DNA of 64,000 bases from Patescibacteria group bacterium (lineage in GTDB: Bacteria > Patescibacteriota > Minisyncoccia > Phycocordibacterales > DATDWN01). The stretch's first letter is position 1. Each line of letters starts with the position of its first letter. The notes under the pieces were generated by a model. The model saw only the letters and a program-made list of their open reading frames with translations. It did no database searches and was not told where the DNA came from. Of this stretch, positions 751-19,056 are shown in pieces. The DNA is taken from positions 178,737-242,736 of the forward strand of contig JAZKAN010000001.1 in the NCBI GenBank assembly GCA_040389125.1, read 5' to 3'. The translations under genes and the position numbers were made by a program.

Positions 751-824
751 GTGGACCCTACAGGACTCGAACCTGCCACCCCATCATTGCAAATGATGTG
801 CTCTACCAGATGAGCTAAGGGCCC
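749..824 (-). tRNA. tRNA-Ala (anticodon UGC)
   Basis: Reverse complement reads GGGCCCTTAGCTCATCTGGTAGAGCACATCATTTGCAATGATGGGGTGGCAGGTTCGAGTCCTGTAGGGTCCACCA. Full cloverleaf, G3:U70 Ala identity pair, anticodon loop TTTGCAA, encoded CCA. Confidence 0.88.
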
Positions 825-882: not shown

Positions 883-1878
883 TTATTTTCGCTCTAGCGC
901 AAGACCTAGAATGTGGTGCAAAAATTCCTGAAATTTAATCCCCACAGCCTCGAGACTTTTAGGTAGGAGCGACTCACTGGTCAGTCCTGGGAGAGTGTTG
1001 ACCTCGAGAAAGTAAATCCCCCGACGAGGAGTAACGATAAAATCTGATCGCGAGTAGCCGTCGAGACTCAGTATGCTGTGAACCTCTGACGATATGCGTT
1101 CTATTTCCTTTTTTTCGGCAATACTAAAATTTCCTGGACAGATTTCCCTGCTCTGTCCGCTATATTTTGCATCATAATCGAAAAATTGATTGGGTTCGTC
1201 GCTTTTTTTGGGCGGTATGATTTCGACCACTGGCAATGCGTACACGTTTTGACCACGCATATTGTTTACGACCCCACATGTTGCTTCCCTTCCCTTTATA
1301 TATTCCTCTACGAGCACATCATTTTCGCTTTGCAAAATTGTCTCGATTGCGTCTACTAATTCTTCTTTGGTATGTGCAATCGTGATACCGACAGACGATC
1401 CGCCAGTAACAGGTTTTATAATAACCGGCATAGGCAAGAGACTAAACACGTTTCGAATACTAGTTGGTACATTATCCGTAGTACGAACGAGAACAGAAAG
1501 CGGAGTTTTAATACCCGCCTGTGTAATACATTCTTTGGTCATGAACTTATTCATACTGATCGCCGATGAAAGTTTGCCCGAGCCAGAGTATGGGATTCCG
1601 TAGTGATCAAAAATTTCCTGGATACGACCATCCTCGCCATATGTGCCGTGGAGAGCATTGAATACAACGTCTACGTGTTTCAAAATCCTATCTGGAGTTT
1701 TAGGAACGCCTCGCATATGCCACGTGCCATCACGAGAAATAAAAATATCAATTGGGCGATGTGTGACCGAAAGTTCCTTGAGTACATTGCTACCTGTTTT
1801 GAGAGAGACATCATACTCCGGAGAAGGCCCTCCGCGTACTACCCCAATGCGTAGAGATGATGGAAGTGTGAAATACAT
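883..1878 (-). CDS. ddl: D-alanine--D-alanine ligase (ATP-grasp)
   Basis: RIGVVRGGPSPEYDVSL N-terminus, ATP-grasp motifs, EVNTLPGLT C-terminal motif. Start chosen at an internal Met (1878 or 1893); the ORF to 1965 is probably an over-extension. Confidence 0.9.
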   Translation of the reverse strand: MYFTLPSSLRIGVVRGGPSPEYDVSLKTGSNVLKELSVTHRPIDIFISRDGTWHMRGVPKTPDRILKHVDVVFNALHGTYGEDGRIQEIFDHYGIPYSGSGKLSSAISMNKFMTKECITQAGIKTPLSVLVRTTDNVPTSIRNVFSLLPMPVIIKPVTGGSSVGITIAHTKEELVDAIETILQSENDVLVEEYIKGREATCGVVNNMRGQNVYALPVVEIIPPKKSDEPNQFFDYDAKYSGQSREICPGNFSIAEKKEIERISSEVHSILSLDGYSRSDFIVTPRRGIYFLEVNTLPGLTSESLLPKSLEAVGIKFQEFLHHILGLALERK

Positions 1879-1928
1879 ATATATAGTATACATGTAGGAG
1901 GTGGTTTGGTGCAAAATAATTAGTGAAA

Positions 1929-1963
1929 TAAAAAAAAGCGCCCACCCCGGTGAAGGAGTGGGC
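1929..1963 (-). terminator. intrinsic terminator (GCCCAC...GUGGGC followed by U8 on minus strand)
   Basis: Minus-sense GCCCACUCCUUCACCGGGGUGGGCGCUUUUUUUU. It ends the ~345-nt unit upstream of ddl. Confidence 0.6.
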
Positions 1964-2273
1964 AAACCAAGGAGAAGAAAATGGTAAGTTCGATCGGATC
2001 AGGGCTCGCGGGAGCCATGTCTACCATAAGCATATACCTGTCTATCTAGAATGCAAGTAGAGTATAACGCATAAGCACCCAGACAGGTGTCTAGGTGCTC
2101 GAAGGAAAATGTGATGGACCAACAGTCCAAAAAATGAAACTGAGGGTCCCAATGGCTGATTCCTGCAGGAATCGGTCGCAGATGAGAGGTCGTGTGTATT
2201 GGATAAACCAAACAGGAAACCTCTCTCGCAGAAATAAAACAAAAGAACATCGCGTGGGTAAATTTTGCCCACG
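1964..2273 (-). ncRNA. candidate structured ncRNA of unknown class (~345 nt including terminator)
   Basis: Intergenic ddl-uvrC region with only overlapping junk ORFs in three frames. It has its own sigma70-like promoter and a strong terminator, several perfect hairpins, and 5'/3' end complementarity (GUGGGCAAA / UUUGCCCAC). Confidence 0.3.
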
Positions 2274-2280
2274 AGTTTTG

Positions 2281-2309
2281 AGTATATAAAAAGTTTCTGT
2301 TTGGTGCAA
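2281..2309 (-). promoter_or_regulatory. sigma70-like promoter TTGCAC-N17-TATACT (minus strand)
   Basis: Minus-sense ttgcac caaacagaaacttttta tatact. It sits between the uvrC stop and the candidate ncRNA. Confidence 0.45.
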
Positions 2310-2338
2310 CTACTTTTTTGTGGAAAAGTGATGTGAAA

Positions 2339-3652
2339 TTATCGTATTTTTCTACGAAGTTTCTTGTGATATCCTATCGCAAATCTGTGAGCCTCGGAGT
2401 TTGAAAGTAAAATCTCACGTTCGTACACCAGCCATTTTTTATTACCCAAAATCTCTCGCGGACGATGTCTCTCGTCTTTAACTATCGACACTACTGGAAT
2501 ATCTGCGTGACTCTGACGCAAAACTTTTTCTATCGCATTTTTCTGTGCACTGCCACCATCCACAGCAATCAAACTCGGTAGTGGCCATTCTATATGAGTC
2601 AACCTACGCGAAAGAATTTCGGAAAGTGCCTTGGTGTCATTTACTCCTGGATTATCTTTAATTTTAAACTTTCGATAATCAGATTTTTTTATTTCACCAT
2701 CCTCGACAACTGTCATCACCCCCACCACATTTGTTCCCGAGAGGTGTGCGATATCGTAACTCTCAATACGAAATACGCCCTGTTTCAATTCATTATCAGC
2801 AGCTATGAATAAATCTTTTTTTATTAAAGAAATATCCTGAATGTGTGTCAATGCAAATAACGTTCTTTTTATTTTTTGAGCATCTTCAAATCTCTTTCCT
2901 TTTGCGAGATGATTCATTTCTTTTGTGAGATTTTTAATAAGTATCCCCTTTTTACCCTCAAAAAATAAAACAATATTTTTGATTTGCTGTGAATATTCTT
3001 CCTTGCTAATTTTCCCTGTACATACTCCAGGACAAAGTCCTATCTGACTATTGAAGCATGGCTTTCCTTGCATTGGTTCACATTTATCTCGATACGGAAA
3101 AAGCTTACGTATAATTTTTAACGCTTCTTTGAGTTGACTTCCGTTTGGAAAAGGACCAAAGGATTGTTTAATTCTCACTTCACTCATTGGAACTTTTTGA
3201 ATTTCATTCTCCCATGCCTTACCTTTTTGGAGTGGCGATGTCTCACCTGCATGCAAAAGTTCCCTTCCTCGGATCACTAATATTCGTGGGAAATCCTCAT
3301 CAGTAATTACCACAAAATTAAAACTTTTATTATCTTTCTCTTTAATATTAGCTATTGGCTGATGTTTTTTTATGAGGTATGCCTCGAGTATGAGCGCCTC
3401 GAGTACAGAGTCAGTTTGTTCAAATGTAATATCATCAAACTCTGAAAGCATTTTAACAATAAGTGGCCCGCGAGTAGTGGCAATGTCTGACGCAAAATAG
3501 CTTCGTACACGATCACAGAGTGACGTCGCCTTGCCTATGTAGAGAATCTCACTTCCCTCTCTCCCTTTTTCTCCTTTTCCACGTCGAAAGAAATACACAC
3601 CTGGTGCATCCGGAAATTGTTTTATTTTGTCGAGAGCTTCTTGACGAGTCAT
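2339..3652 (-). CDS. uvrC: excinuclease ABC subunit C, short form lacking C-terminal (HhH)2
   Basis: GIY-YIG N-terminus (GVYFF...ILYIGKA), UVR domain, RNase-H-like endonuclease domain (IESYDIAHLSG...IAVDGG). Start at MTRQEALDKI. Confidence 0.85.
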   Translation of the reverse strand: MTRQEALDKIKQFPDAPGVYFFRRGKGEKGREGSEILYIGKATSLCDRVRSYFASDIATTRGPLIVKMLSEFDDITFEQTDSVLEALILEAYLIKKHQPIANIKEKDNKSFNFVVITDEDFPRILVIRGRELLHAGETSPLQKGKAWENEIQKVPMSEVRIKQSFGPFPNGSQLKEALKIIRKLFPYRDKCEPMQGKPCFNSQIGLCPGVCTGKISKEEYSQQIKNIVLFFEGKKGILIKNLTKEMNHLAKGKRFEDAQKIKRTLFALTHIQDISLIKKDLFIAADNELKQGVFRIESYDIAHLSGTNVVGVMTVVEDGEIKKSDYRKFKIKDNPGVNDTKALSEILSRRLTHIEWPLPSLIAVDGGSAQKNAIEKVLRQSHADIPVVSIVKDERHRPREILGNKKWLVYEREILLSNSEAHRFAIGYHKKLRRKIR

Positions 3653-4163
3653 GGTAAGTATGATATCAAATAGTGAGGAGAAAGTACATATGAACAACAC
3701 GATACAGGAAGTACAGCAAGCTGCTCTGAAATTGAAAGGGCTTCAGGCTGAGAACCGCCTTTATAAGGCAGGTAAGCCGAAAGAATTGACCACCCTTGCT
3801 TACGCTCTCATAGGCATGCTGGCGGGAAACTTCGCTTGCTACGGGAGTGTGGGAAATGAATCCAGCCGCTCCGAAATCGAAGAATTCATTGCTGAGGCAG
3901 TCGAATTCGCCGGGACTTTCGAGGACAAATCCACACCACTTTCCAGCATAACTTTGAGTATGTTAGAAGAGATATTCGTGGACGCGATGACTGCCAACCC
4001 CTCGATTCCAAAGATCAGGATAACCGAACCAACCTTGCGAGCCTTACACACACTCGGGGTGAAACTCATTAATGTTCCAACTATGGCAGCACATCATTTG
4101 ACAGAGGCGAAAATCGGCGGAGTTACGCTTCAATGTAAGAGCTCGAAGCCTTTAAAGTTCTGA
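3651..4163 (+). CDS. hypothetical protein
   Basis: 170-aa ORF (alternative start MNNTIQEV at 3690). No recognisable domain. Divergently overlaps the uvrC start and is followed by a clean terminator. Confidence 0.5.
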   Translation: MVSMISNSEEKVHMNNTIQEVQQAALKLKGLQAENRLYKAGKPKELTTLAYALIGMLAGNFACYGSVGNESSRSEIEEFIAEAVEFAGTFEDKSTPLSSITLSMLEEIFVDAMTANPSIPKIRITEPTLRALHTLGVKLINVPTMAAHHLTEAKIGGVTLQCKSSKPLKF

Positions 4164-11337: not shown

Positions 11338-12087
11338 ATGAAAAAGCCACAAAAAGTCAAAGTTGCCCCTGCACCACCTACAAATACATACCCAATGCGG
11401 ATCAATAAATACCTTGCTCACAAGGGTATCGCAACACGTACTGGTGTAGACGAGCTAATCAAATCGCACAAAATCCTCATAAATGGAAAAGTTGCTGTGC
11501 TCGGTGACAAAGTCGCGGAGACAGACAACGTAGAAGTACGTGGCACACACACCAAAAAGAAATATGTGTACTATGCGTACAACAAACCACAAGGTATTGT
11601 GAGTACAAATCCCCAAGGTGATGAAAAAGGTATTTTGGAAAATGTGAAATTACCGGTCAAAGTTTTCCCTGTCGGACGATTGGACAAGGAGTCACATGGT
11701 CTTATGATACTTACAAATGACGGTCGTGTTACAGACAGACTTCTCAATCCTATTTACAAGCACGAAAAAGAGTACATCGTCGAGGTGGATCGCAAATATA
11801 CTCCAGGATTTATGAAACATATGCAAGAAGGTGTTGAACTTTCAGATGGTATTACTAAACCTGCTGTATTTGAGAAAATTGATGAAACAACATTTAGCAT
11901 TATTTTGACCGAAGGTCGCAATCGTCAACTACGACGTATGACAGAAAAACTTGGCTATACGATACGTGACTTGCAACGTATCCGTGTACAAAATATTGAG
12001 CTCAAAACTGCACCGATTAATTCCTGTCGAGAAATCACCGGCACTGAGCGAGAGAAATTTTTGGAAGGTATTGGTTTAACTGCGTAA
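11338..12087 (+). CDS. rRNA pseudouridine synthase (RsuA/RluB family) with S4 domain
   Basis: S4-like N-terminus (INKYLAHKGIATR...KILINGKV) and catalytic VGRLDKESHGLMILTNDG. Confidence 0.85.
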   Translation: MKKPQKVKVAPAPPTNTYPMRINKYLAHKGIATRTGVDELIKSHKILINGKVAVLGDKVAETDNVEVRGTHTKKKYVYYAYNKPQGIVSTNPQGDEKGILENVKLPVKVFPVGRLDKESHGLMILTNDGRVTDRLLNPIYKHEKEYIVEVDRKYTPGFMKHMQEGVELSDGITKPAVFEKIDETTFSIILTEGRNRQLRRMTEKLGYTIRDLQRIRVQNIELKTAPINSCREITGTEREKFLEGIGLTA

Positions 12088-16278: not shown

Positions 16279-17592
16279 TTATTCCACGAAGGTAAATGCT
16301 TTGCCCTTCTTGCCCGCTCTACCCGTTCTTCCGATTCGGTGAACATAGTCGTCGTATGTTGCAGGGATATCAAAGTTGATCACGTGTGAGACATCAGAAA
16401 TGTCGAGACCTCGAGCAGCAACGTCTGTCGCCACGAGTACCTGCGCCTTATTTTCCTTGAACTGTCTCAGTGCTCTTTCGCGTCCAGACTGGTTTTTATC
16501 ACCATGAATAGATTCGGCTTTGAATCCGCGACCATTGAGTAGTTGTGTAAGTTTTTCAACGCCATGTTTGGTCCGTCCGAAAATGAGAACTTTATTAAAG
16601 TCAGGTTGAATGAGCATGCTATGCAACACATCAAGTTTATTATCTCCGCGCTCCACTCGCACCACATCCTGGTCAACATTTTTTGATGTGTCCTGAGTTT
16701 TAACAGAAATAGTTACTGGATTTTTCAAGAAATCCTTGATGAGCACCTCGATTTCTCGAGAAAGTGTCGCAGAGAAAAACAGTGTGTGTCTCTCGGCTGG
16801 CATTTTGCTCATGAGCAGCTTCATGTCGTTAATAAATCCCATGTCGAGCATTCGATCAGCTTCATCGAGAACCACCGTTCGAAAATGTGAGAGGTTTAAA
16901 CATCCTCGTTCCACGAGATCCTTGATTCGTCCTGGCGTACCAATGACAAATTCATTGCGATATCGCAAATCGCGAATCTGCTTGCCGATCGGAGATCCTC
17001 CTACCGCACAGACAGAATATAGTTTCATACCCTTTGTAAAACCAACGAGCTCATCCTGAATCTGAGTCGCAAGTTCGCGAGTTGGAACCATGATGAGTAC
17101 GTTTGCTTTTGCATCAGAGAGTACTTTGTGAATAAGCGGAATGAGAAATGCCGCTGTTTTACCAGTACCTGTGTTTGCAATACCGACAACATCCTCTCCG
17201 CGAAGTACGTGTGGGATTGCGCGGTCCTGAATCGGAGTTGGGAGTGAATACCCTTTTCCTAAAATATTATTTTTTAAATTTTCATCAATAAGAAAATCAG
17301 CGAACTTGTGTTCAGGAACAAAGTTTTCAACTTGTTCTGTGATGACTGCCTTGCTGATAAATCGTGAGTGTTCGATGCGGTCGGTTTTGCCCCCGCCTCG
17401 TCCACCGCGACTTCCACCTCTGTTTCCTCCACTTGAAAATCCACGAGAGTTACCTCGTGATCCATATGTAGTTCGTGGAGCATGACTTGCACCACGTGTC
17501 GTAGCGTAATAGCCACCACTCGTACCTGTAGTTGTTCGAGATACAGGTCGTCTCGCCGCTCCTCGTGAGGAGCTGTATGATTTTGATTCCAT
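16279..17592 (-). CDS. DEAD-box ATP-dependent RNA helicase with C-terminal RG-rich tail
   Basis: Q-motif, GTGKTAAF (motif I), VLDEADRMLDMGF (DEAD), SAT, and HRIGRTGRAG (motif VI). Confidence 0.9.
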   Translation of the reverse strand: MESKSYSSSRGAARRPVSRTTTGTSGGYYATTRGASHAPRTTYGSRGNSRGFSSGGNRGGSRGGRGGGKTDRIEHSRFISKAVITEQVENFVPEHKFADFLIDENLKNNILGKGYSLPTPIQDRAIPHVLRGEDVVGIANTGTGKTAAFLIPLIHKVLSDAKANVLIMVPTRELATQIQDELVGFTKGMKLYSVCAVGGSPIGKQIRDLRYRNEFVIGTPGRIKDLVERGCLNLSHFRTVVLDEADRMLDMGFINDMKLLMSKMPAERHTLFFSATLSREIEVLIKDFLKNPVTISVKTQDTSKNVDQDVVRVERGDNKLDVLHSMLIQPDFNKVLIFGRTKHGVEKLTQLLNGRGFKAESIHGDKNQSGRERALRQFKENKAQVLVATDVAARGLDISDVSHVINFDIPATYDDYVHRIGRTGRAGKKGKAFTFVE

Positions 17593-17778
17593 TTTATTAT
17601 TACCTGAGGCTTTTAGAATAAAGTCTCGTAAGTTCGGGGAGAAATATAAAGCGGATACCGCTCGGAAATCTCTAGGATTTAAAGCAAAAGCCTCAAAAAC
17701 AAACTAGTGAGAATGACTCAAGTAACTACTACTATATACTACCTGCCATTTTCTGTCAAGGATTGTGGAAAATGGTGC

Positions 17779-17807
17779 TTGACAATCTATATGGAGTATG
17801 CTATACT
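17779..17807 (+). promoter_or_regulatory. consensus sigma70 promoter TTGACA-N17-TATACT
   Basis: cttgacaatctatatggagtatgctatact, ~90 nt upstream of the LysM gene start. Confidence 0.55.
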
Positions 17808-17898
17808 ATACACAGACTTGTTAAATTTGTTCAGTAATCCGCTAGGCGGGTTGGGGCAGGTTTGGCAAGAGAATGCTCGTTGTAAAAGGAAAGCTCGA

Positions 17899-19056
17899 AT
17901 GAAAACGACTGCTTGCATGATCGTAATGCTTGCGTTGCTTCTCGGGGCGGTCATGCCCCTCGCGGCGCAGGAAGAAAGAAATGATCCGGACGTTTATGTC
18001 GTGATGCCAGGCGACTCTGCCTGGTCAATCTCGGGCGACGTCTTCCACAACCCCCTCCTCTGGAGGCAGGTGGTGGAAAAAAATCCGTTCTTGAAAGCAA
18101 AGGGGCGGATTACGGTTAACGAGAAGAACGGGTGGACATATGTCATGCTACACCCCGGCGAGCAACTGTTTGGACTTGCAGAATTAGGAATTCTGCCCAA
18201 GCAGGTGCCACTTTCCGAACTCGGGATCAAGATTCCCGACCCGGTCGTGATCAATCAAGTGTCAAATTGGACTTGGTTCATTCTCGGCTTGGCACTACTG
18301 CTACTCATCGCGGCCTACCTCATTTATCGGATGCTTACCCGAGATCCGGTAAACTCGAGGCAGGCGATGATGCCTGGCGGAGTTACCGACACGACAGCAC
18401 CAACAGTAATGCAACAGGTTGCTGCTCGGGCTGCCGGATACACTCGTCCAGTCTCGACCAACTCGGCAATCTATCAGCAGTTCACGATCGTCCGTCAAAC
18501 CGCCGGTCGTATCTGGGGCAACATGACAGTTAGTTATGCGGATGGCCGCTCGATTCCTCGTCGCCTTTCCGGTGAACGAGCGTACCAAGCGGAAGTTCGT
18601 TTCCCTGATGGTCACACCGAGACCCTGTACATGTTGCAGGGATGCGGAAATGACCTGCGTATGGGTGGCATCTCGCGTTATCTGCCTGGTCCAGAATTCC
18701 GGTTCGAGGCAGACCCCGCGCCGGTTGTTCCGCCAGCTACCGTTCCGATCGCTGAGACTCCGACCTCTGCACCCGCAGAGGCACCGGCTCCGGTGGTTGA
18801 ACCTGTCGCAACTCCTCAAGTAACAGCCCTTGCACAACCGGAAATCAATCGTAGCGGAGAATTTATCCGCTCGAAAGATGCTCCGGCAGTCGCAAGTGGC
18901 AGCGGAATCGTCAAGCTGGAAATCCGGCGTGCATCATTCGATAATCCTGCCATGCTTCGCATGAGCGGCATCGATGAAAAAGCCGACACCACGTGCGAAG
19001 TGGAGGAAGGGATGGTAACATTCCGATTCACTCCGAAGCACCACAACAGCAATTAG
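17899..19056 (+). CDS. LysM-like domain membrane protein, GC-rich
   Basis: Signal peptide MKTTACMIVMLALLLGAVMPLAAQ. LysM-like segment YVVMPGDSAWSISGDVF...LHPGEQL, a central TM helix, and a Pro/Ala-rich C-terminus. GC is about 55-57% against ~40% background. The ORF to 17707 is an over-extension. Confidence 0.6.
   Translation: MKTTACMIVMLALLLGAVMPLAAQEERNDPDVYVVMPGDSAWSISGDVFHNPLLWRQVVEKNPFLKAKGRITVNEKNGWTYVMLHPGEQLFGLAELGILPKQVPLSELGIKIPDPVVINQVSNWTWFILGLALLLLIAAYLIYRMLTRDPVNSRQAMMPGGVTDTTAPTVMQQVAARAAGYTRPVSTNSAIYQQFTIVRQTAGRIWGNMTVSYADGRSIPRRLSGERAYQAEVRFPDGHTETLYMLQGCGNDLRMGGISRYLPGPEFRFEADPAPVVPPATVPIAETPTSAPAEAPAPVVEPVATPQVTALAQPEINRSGEFIRSKDAPAVASGSGIVKLEIRRASFDNPAMLRMSGIDEKADTTCEVEEGMVTFRFTPKHHNSN

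Follow-up and report, generated by a model that had tools for sequence, protein, structure and literature searches.

The locus studied here raises the question of what, if anything, is encoded between uvrC and ddl in an uncultured member of the Parcubacteria/Patescibacteria, a lineage of the candidate phyla radiation (CPR) that is represented in this case by a metagenome-assembled genome. The window that we analysed is a stretch of 64,000 nucleotides of this genome, on whose minus strand uvrC (3652..2339; its product carries the UvrC RNase H and GIY-YIG domains) is followed by a spacer of ~460 nt (2338..1879), by ddl (1878..883) and, directly 3' of ddl, by tRNA-Ala (UGC; 824..752). A first-pass annotation, made from the sequence alone, had described the spacer as a 370-nt gap holding a candidate structured non-coding RNA of ~345 nt with its own promoter and terminator. 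The figure of 370 nt was due to a spurious TTG-extended open reading frame (ORF) for ddl: the gene starts at the ATG at 1878, and its product is identical to a deposited 331-aa D-alanine--D-alanine ligase of a 'Patescibacteria group bacterium'. The RNA itself fared better. We conclude from the comparison of related loci that the spacer encodes a genuine non-coding RNA, conserved and structured, which belongs to an undescribed and narrowly distributed family; that this is a small RNA restricted to a sub-clade of Parcubacteria and transcribed independently is the explanation that we prefer, with about even chances of being correct.

The comparison was based on 80 Ddl loci from GTDB species representatives, 80 from JGI metagenomes, and additional contigs encoding selected Ddl homologs; labels such as L001, L005 or L165 refer to individual relatives' loci. 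Since all loci were retrieved by way of Ddl, the fact that the RNA is always linked to ddl is an artefact of ascertainment: it is evidence neither way, and it does not address the independence of the RNA from ddl. The nearest relatives of the window Ddl are Zambryskibacteria/Taylorbacteria-like, and the closest one (L001) has a Ddl 72% identical to it. Synteny of uvrC and ddl is widespread among the relatives, with spacers ranging from ~50 nt to >800 nt. The spacer of L001 is colinear with that of the window, the promoter and the central core being conserved, and differs from it by hairpin-sized indels of 28, 78 and 12 nt, which were called as not being codon multiples. When the RNA was searched against 81 loci with nhmmer or blastn only L001 and L005 were recovered, and covariance models were needed for the rest. 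With covariance modelling of the core (R1, followed by R2) the motif was found in L005, L165/L166, L006, L004, L170 and L174-L177, the E-values of the homologs ranging from 5.5e-16 to 1.4e-4; a rearranged version of the motif was recognised by eye in L167. Altogether the core is found in 8 further species, 9 in all, and every copy sits in the uvrC-ddl spacer, in the orientation of the genes. The other 150-odd Ddl loci do not contain the motif, including those of the near relatives L002 (spacer of ~50 nt) and L003, and there is no homolog of the RNA at the JGI metagenome Ddl loci among the matches listed, which have at most 52% identity to the window Ddl. A strict DNA pattern (H2 ... GGNCCATCA ... 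TCGA) had 0 matches in metagenome contigs; a pattern match in a viral contig (L172), which the model does not recognise, was attributed to chance.

The 352-nt stretch folds at -118.7 kcal/mol, whereas dinucleotide shuffles reach -85.5 ± 5 (z = -6.6). Since the opposite strand is nearly as stable (z = -6.4), folding energy alone does not assign the strand. Covariation is seen in three of the hairpins, H2 to H4 (Table 1). In an 8-species alignment of these hairpins 97.9% of the cells are paired, and 12 of the 19 pairs show changes on both sides (29 cells), figures that are somewhat inflated by the alignment having been fitted to the structure model, although the stem sequences themselves plainly differ between species. 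The observed pairing, compensatory-change counts and covariation score were not matched by any of 500 shuffles, and sliding the partner columns by 1-3 positions reduced the pairing to 31-57%. Taken individually, H2 is 97.6% paired with both-side changes in 4 of 6 pairs, in H3 pairing reaches 95% and both partners have changed in 3 of 5 pairs (GGACC/GGUCC, GGGGA/UCCCC, GGCCC/GGGCC, GGGCA/UGCCC), and in H4 pairing is complete (100%) and both partners have changed in 5 of 8 pairs; the basal G·U pair of H4 is invariant in 8/8 species. On the opposite strand G·U pairs, this invariant one included, would be A·C mismatches, which places the RNA on the strand of the genes. Hairpin indels made a MAFFT alignment of the full-length RNAs unusable, and H0 and H1 were compared by eye; so judged, they also change compensatorily. 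The H0 stem is kept with a different sequence in L001 (GUGGCC/GGUUCAC), L165 (CGUGACA/UGUCACG), L005 (GUGUGC/GCACAC), L174 (AAACAGAC/GUCUGUUU) and also L167. H1 is likewise kept as a hairpin with differing stems (GAGAGCA/UGCUCUC in L001, CGGAGAC/GUCUCCG in L165, GGAGAC/GUCUCC in L174, GAGGCA/UGCCUC in L004, 12 bp in L005) and with the loop RGGCC in most species; the 28-nt indel between the window and L001 falls at its tip. Two perfect stems had been pointed out originally: GCACCUAGAC-ACCU-GUCUGGGUGC is found at 2098-2075, inside H4, and GGCUC-CCGC-GAGCC, also present, is not conserved in L001.

Table 1. Features of the uvrC-ddl spacer in the window, listed 5' to 3' on the minus strand (MFE, minimum free energy).
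Feature	Position	Strand	Sequence or description	Basis or remark
Upstream box	2319..2329	minus	ACTTTTCCACA	just 5' of the -35 region; identical in L001
RNA promoter	2281..2309	minus	TTGCAC (2309-2304), N17, TATACT (2286-2281)	
H0, 5'-terminal hairpin	2253..2273	minus	CGUGGG-CAAAAUUUA-CCCACG	MFE fold
Single-stranded motif	2241..2251	minus	GAUGUUCUUUU	GUUC in 8/8 species with an available 5' region
H1, long hairpin	2177..2230	minus	UGCGAGAGAGGUU ... GACCUCUCAUCUGCG	MFE fold; extended tip in the window genome
H2	2158..2173	minus	GAUUCC-UGCA-GGAAUC, perfect 16-nt palindrome	model helix 1
H3	2116..2149	minus	GGACC ... GGUCC around a variable inner hairpin	model helix 2
J34, pyrimidine-rich linker	2101..2115	minus	AUCACAUUUUCCUUC, 15 nt, single-stranded	ends in conserved UUC before GAGC (alignments)
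H4	2073..2100	minus	GAGCACCUAGAC-ACCU-GUCUGGGUGCUU	model helix 3
3' module B	1965..2072	minus		MFE fold and comparison with L001
Strong intrinsic terminator	1929..1964	minus	stem 1964-1939, 10 pairs (7 G-C), U8 at 1937-1930	
ddl promoter (outside the RNA)	1876..1914	minus	TTGCAC (1914-1909), N18, TATACT (1890-1885), N6, ATG (1878-1876)	

Could this be a divergent copy of a known RNA, or a small protein gene? The checks proposed with the first-pass annotation, a search of Rfam with Infernal and a comparison of the syntenic spacers, bear directly on this point. At the gathering score, Rfam 15 finds only tRNA in the 64-kb window; at E <= 10 the region 1850-2400 yields only terminator-driven, sub-threshold matches of 14-18 bits (the thresholds being 41-140), and at E <= 0.1 there is no non-tRNA match in the 9 homologous loci. 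Neither the window nor these loci match any described riboswitch or cis-regulatory family of Rfam 15. ARAGORN reports only tRNA-Ala, and no tmRNA, in the window. Among the housekeeping RNAs, RNase P RNA (RF00010/RF00011; P4 pseudoknot, GGAAAGUCC-type CR-I) has no covariance-model match in the window or the homologs, some of which, at ~105 nt, are too small for it; 6S RNA (RF00013) has no such match either; tmRNA, with its tRNA-like domain and tag frame, was found by neither ARAGORN nor Rfam; and SRP RNA (RF00169/RF01854, domain IV) gave no match, the structure consisting of several hairpins rather than one long one. What the spacer RNA does share with 6S and RNase P RNA is being non-coding and highly structured, a length here of ~345 nt, within the range of RNase P RNA and tmRNA, and complementary ends. 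These ends, GUGGGCAAA and UUUGCCCAC, had been likened to the closing helices of RNase P or 6S RNA. The 9-nt complementarity is indeed present; however, about 0.6 such repeats are expected by chance in 551 nt (our own estimate), the energy of the 5'/3' duplex is no better than that of shuffles in 4/4 species (window, L001, L005 and L165; 0.32-0.58 of the shuffles are as good), and the 9-mer, and with it the closing helix, is not conserved in L001. Unlike 6S and RNase P RNA, the spacer RNA is made of local hairpins with no long-range rod or P1-P4 core, has homologs down to ~105 nt and a patchy distribution, being absent from most relatives, L002 among them, and finds no covariance-model match even at E <= 10.

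As to proteins, the gap holds only short overlapping ORFs, as had been noticed. Those of 72-83 aa on the minus strand overlap the RNA and are not conserved as proteins, and a plus-strand ORF of 22 aa preceded by AAGGAG (1981-2049) is not conserved in L001. Similarity between the window and L001 extends to each of the six frames, switches from one frame to another, and comes with indels whose lengths are not divisible by 3, which indicates conservation at the nucleotide rather than the protein level; in more distant species no peptide-level conservation of the spacer was found. A divergent RNase P, 6S, tmRNA or SRP RNA, or a small protein gene, is therefore extremely improbable and close to refuted, and the other conclusion of the first-pass annotation, that the identity is open and a novel small RNA possible, is the right one.

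The RNA is accompanied by transcription signals. Transcription would start at about 2276-2274, ~7 nt past the TATACT of the proposed minus-strand promoter, which is present. The support for this promoter is comparative, since a scan with the standard sigma-70 consensus does not call it (8 of 12 positions match), yet a -10 element is kept at the same position in all homologs with upstream sequence (L001, L005, L006, L165, L004, L167, L174). In these, TATACT, TATAAT, TATAGT, TATAAG or TAGAAT stands 6-8 nt ahead of the first RNA element, and H0 or GUUC begins at about +1 to +10. The box upstream of the window promoter has a counterpart, TTTTCCACA, at the equivalent place in L005, L006 and L165 (the CCACA box), and is a putative functional element. 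At the other end, terminators follow the structure in every species carrying the RNA; the strong one ahead of ddl, predicted from the outset, has counterparts of other sequence at the same place in L001, L005 and L165. In short, the RNA is non-coding, its -10 element is, as read from sequence, positionally conserved, a terminator is present in all species, and its structure covaries, which are the generic marks of a small RNA. Two side observations concern the promoter region. The CCACA box TTTTCCACA recurs elsewhere in the window (17593-17772, minus), 4 nt upstream of a promoter TTGACA-N17-TATAGT behind which lies a DEAD-box RNA helicase gene (16279-17592) with a structured 5' leader of ~130 nt containing the long-range helix GAGGCUUUU/AAAAGCCUC. 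In addition, an exact 11-nt direct repeat, TTGCACCAAAC (minus; 1904-1914 and 2299-2309), forms the -35 region of both the RNA and the ddl promoters; ~0.04 such repeats would be expected by chance in 551 nt (our own estimate), and the sharing suggests common regulation or a duplicated promoter module.

Whether the RNA is a unit of its own depends in part on how ddl is transcribed. In bacteria transcription begins ~7 nt past the -10 element, and a -10 element followed by six nucleotides and an ATG is the signature of a leaderless mRNA. Ahead of ddl, TATAAT or TATACT, 6 nt and ATG follow one another in every locus read (7 nt in L006). From this geometry and the expected start of transcription it follows that ddl has a promoter to itself past the terminator of the RNA, which makes the RNA look like a separate transcription unit. 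The arrangement TAnnnT-N6-ATG is found at ddl in 65 of the 102 relatives with at least 48% Ddl identity, versus 1 of 55 below 40%. Within the window it occurs at 13 ORFs of at least 100 aa, at plausible starts in 12 cases, and Shine-Dalgarno motifs are rare at plausible gene starts of this genome, in which leaderless mRNAs appear to be common. A literature search on 'leaderless' genes in Parcubacteria returned nothing relevant. Further starts of this type lie at 11338(+), 20488(+), 26897(+), 56714(-), 51902(-), 41048(-), 32750(-), 31370(-), 14354(-), 11253(-) and 9171(-).

The same conserved signals could be read without any functional RNA, the region acting as DNA: a terminator for uvrC, a protein operator formed by H2 and the CCACA box, and promoters, with the hairpins being incidental. 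H2 lends itself to this reading, because it is a perfect palindrome, loop included, in every species (the self-complementary loops are UGCA, GGCC, AGCU and GCGC), as a dimeric DNA-binding protein needs; taken by itself, this palindrome suggests a DNA operator, or else dimerisation of the RNA, rather than a plain hairpin. The recurrence of the CCACA box at another promoter of the window points in the same direction, and the nucleotide identity between the core and its distant homologs, 0.47-0.67, does not clearly exceed the 0.58-0.62 seen for ddl coding DNA. However, H0, H1, H3 and H4 are not palindromic, and their pairing is kept by compensatory changes in unrelated stem sequences; the G·U pairs, the invariant one and others, are strand-specific; H2 lies at about +10 to +100 from the promoter, a distance atypical of an operator; and terminators with a U-tract follow the structure in all species. 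We consider this reading improbable. The palindromes corresponding to H2 are located at 2773-2788 in L005, 2875-2890 in L006 and 1263-1280 in L174, with another in L165, and that of the window contains a CTGCAG (PstI-type) site.

The main rival is a cis-acting role: the core would serve as ddl leader and work as an attenuator or as an ON-type riboswitch, an option already entertained in the first-pass annotation that survives as a minority view and that we hold to be unlikely. Transcription would then start from the distal CCACA-box promoter, H1-H3 would be the sensor, and a helix resembling the P1 of riboswitches (GUUC:GAGC/GAAC) would compete with the base of H4; whenever this helix formed, there would be read-through into ddl, on top of the output of its constitutive leaderless promoter. 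In its favour, ddl follows the RNA directly and in the same orientation in 9/9 species, and the CCACA box also precedes ddl in L168, where the RNA is absent. In five species (L006, L004, L167, L170, L175) the tail UUUU(U)GUG comes after H4 and the start of ddl within 29-58 nt, the RNA measuring about 105-250 nt. The single-stranded motif has its complement in the first 4-7 nt on the 5' side of H4, both GUUC and this partner being called invariant, and RNAfold, when deprived of the 3' strand of H4, pairs GUUC with the 5' strand in the window, L001, L165 (7/7 bp) and L005, an arrangement typical of an ON switch. The rarity of Shine-Dalgarno sites in this genome also means that a leadered ddl mRNA might be translated in spite of not having one. 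On the other hand, the P1-like GUUC:GARC pairing shows no covariation, is always possible over only 4 bp and is equalled by 152-200 of 500 shuffles; L167 has GUUCUUU but no GARC partner. A second strong terminator separates H4 from ddl in four species, the window included; the window H4 has lost its U-tract, yet conservation of the core persists; a leaderless-type promoter is kept at ddl throughout; and the junctions are pyrimidine-rich linkers, unlike the conserved purine-rich pockets typical of aptamers.

A known system of similar layout is the pbuE/ydhL adenine riboswitch (purine family, RF00167), an ON-type switch in which P1 and terminator overlap, the former with its 3' strand and the latter with its 5' strand. 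It resembles the present RNA in its position upstream of, and co-oriented with, the gene, in the possible competition between P1 (GUUC:GARC) and the terminator H4, and in the minimal form seen in L006, where P1 and two hairpins are followed by the terminator. The present RNA differs in having no Rfam match, a P1 of only 4-7 bp with no covariation, no conserved pocket-like junction, a leaderless promoter at ddl and the second terminator in 4 species. The most specific version, in which H1-H3 would sense a cell-wall signal (D-alanine, D-Ala-D-Ala or UDP-MurNAc-peptide), stabilise GUUC:GARC, disable H4 and let ddl be transcribed, strikes us as a long shot; if true, D-Ala-D-Ala ligase would have its first associated class of regulatory RNA, and the CPR bacteria the first class specific to them.

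The extent of the transcript is a further point. By comparison of the loci, the conserved unit is limited to ~200 nt on the 5' side; the remaining ~140 nt on the 3' side form a separate and poorly conserved module. In most homologs H4 is the terminator hairpin (tail UUUUGYG), and the shortest ones, of ~105 nt, consist of three local hairpins. An extra 3' module of 100-230 nt with a strong terminator and CU-rich stretches is present in the window, L001, L005 and L165, which are also the four species with the second strong terminator between H4 and ddl. In the window this module B has a block in common with L001 (ACUUGCAUUCURGRUA..AGGUAUA) and a small hairpin, ACCA-UUUUCUUCUCCU-UGGU (1985-1966), with a CU-rich, anti-Shine-Dalgarno-like loop (1981-1970); at 40% column identity its homology across species is not demonstrable, conservation being limited to the window and L001. 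The window tail of H4, UUAUGCG, is a weak U-tract, and since H4 is therefore not usable as a terminator here, a single transcript of ~345 nt is plausible in this genome.

A tandem of two small RNAs is nevertheless possible, if somewhat unlikely: RNA A from ~2275 to 2068, and RNA B, comprising the CU-rich loop and the terminator, in the last ~95-140 nt, from an internal promoter. Units resembling module B stand alone 5' of ddl in L163 (1285-1385) and L173 (840-1000), where the conserved core is absent, each with a promoter, a CU-rich anti-Shine-Dalgarno-like hairpin loop (GUUUCCUUCUCCUA; UUCCCUCCGU) and a terminator. L005 and L165 have TGTATACT / TGTTATAT directly after the U-tract of H4, -10-like elements (GGTATAT/TATACT) occur in the window module B, and homologs devoid of module B end at H4. 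This arrangement, however, would leave RNA A of the window with no obvious 3' end before 1930, given its H4 tail; the internal -10 candidates have neither a TG extension nor a -35 element; and module B, as said, is not demonstrably homologous across species.

We favour a stand-alone small RNA because it has its own promoter, a 5' hairpin and a terminator, because four species have the second terminator before ddl, and because the core has been retained although H4 lost its U-tract in the window genome. According to this explanation, transcription would begin near 2275 with the hairpin H0, which would protect the 5' end, and continue through the conserved GUUCUUU stretch and the four hairpins H1-H4. 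In most species H4 and its UUUUGYG tail would end the RNA at about 105-250 nt; in the window genome the degenerate tail would probably allow run-on through the second module, with its exposed CU-rich loop, up to the strong terminator at 1964-1930, giving ~345 nt. Just past this terminator ddl would be transcribed separately from its own leaderless-type promoter. The most likely action would be that of a trans-acting riboregulator, in which GUUCUUU, J34 and the CU-rich loop pair with purine-rich mRNA or bind a protein. RsaE/RoxS and FsrA are independently transcribed, trans-acting small RNAs of Gram-positive bacteria with C/U-rich exposed loops; like them, the spacer RNA has its own promoter, a 5' stem-loop, a Rho-independent terminator, no coding potential, and pyrimidine-rich segments complementary to Shine-Dalgarno-like purine tracts (the UUUUCUUCUCCU loop, 1981-1970). 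It differs from them in showing no homology of sequence or structure (nothing in Rfam 15 matches) and in belonging to a genome that seems poor in Shine-Dalgarno sites. By analogy, the exposed and conserved pyrimidine-rich segments may pair with purine-rich sites on mRNAs or be bound by a protein.

Several observations weigh against a separate trans-acting RNA. A k-mer scan for targets complementary to the CU-rich loop and GUUCUUU gave only noise, and our analysis identified no target, seed pairing or partner protein. The terminator H4 at 29-58 nt from the ddl ATG in five species is the geometry of a cis-regulatory leader, GUUC is able to pair with the 5' strand of H4, and module B may correspond to another RNA that is transcribed on its own. 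To these are to be added the small number of carriers (only 9 species are known), the promoter not called by the consensus scan, the inflation of the pairing and covariation figures, and the sampling through Ddl, all described above.

Regulatory RNAs of CPR are essentially uncharted: a literature search on CPR small RNAs returned nothing relevant, and the main text of the 224-motif paper mentions neither Parcubacteria, nor ddl, nor uvrC. The RNA described here is a concrete, covariation-supported family with transcription signals beside an essential cell-wall gene, and offers an entry point for transcript mapping in Parcubacteria and for deciding between action in trans and gating of ddl. Since the family is narrow (9 species), its general impact is modest for now; widespread leaderless-type promoters, for their part, matter for the annotation of start codons and small genes in CPR genomes.

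Some minor observations concern the surroundings. A 170-aa ORF (3651-4163, +) located between uvrC and uvrA on the opposite strand, and a 449-aa ORF (17707-19056, +), have no Pfam match at E <= 0.001. The 136-aa ORF at 447-857 is over-extended and overlaps tRNA-Ala; a tRNA gene is found at the same place after ddl in the RNA-bearing relatives examined, L001, L004, L005, L006, L165 and L170. In L003 the spacer content (2590-2950) is unrelated: a promoter TTGACT-N17-TATACA is followed by ~300 nt in which GGAGG-N8-ATG opens a 23-aa ORF (MTPAQVERQEMEFVRKGKGSSTI), and then by a terminator (GGACUCCUCGGGGUCC-U6). The uvrC-ddl spacer seems to be a hot spot for small genes. Finally, in L174 (1355-1485) a perfect inverted repeat of ~33 bp around ~55 nt lies between the RNA terminator and the ddl promoter. 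It is found also in L176, appears to be missing from L175, whose Ddl is identical, judging solely by a difference of 96 nt in spacer length, and may be a miniature mobile element.

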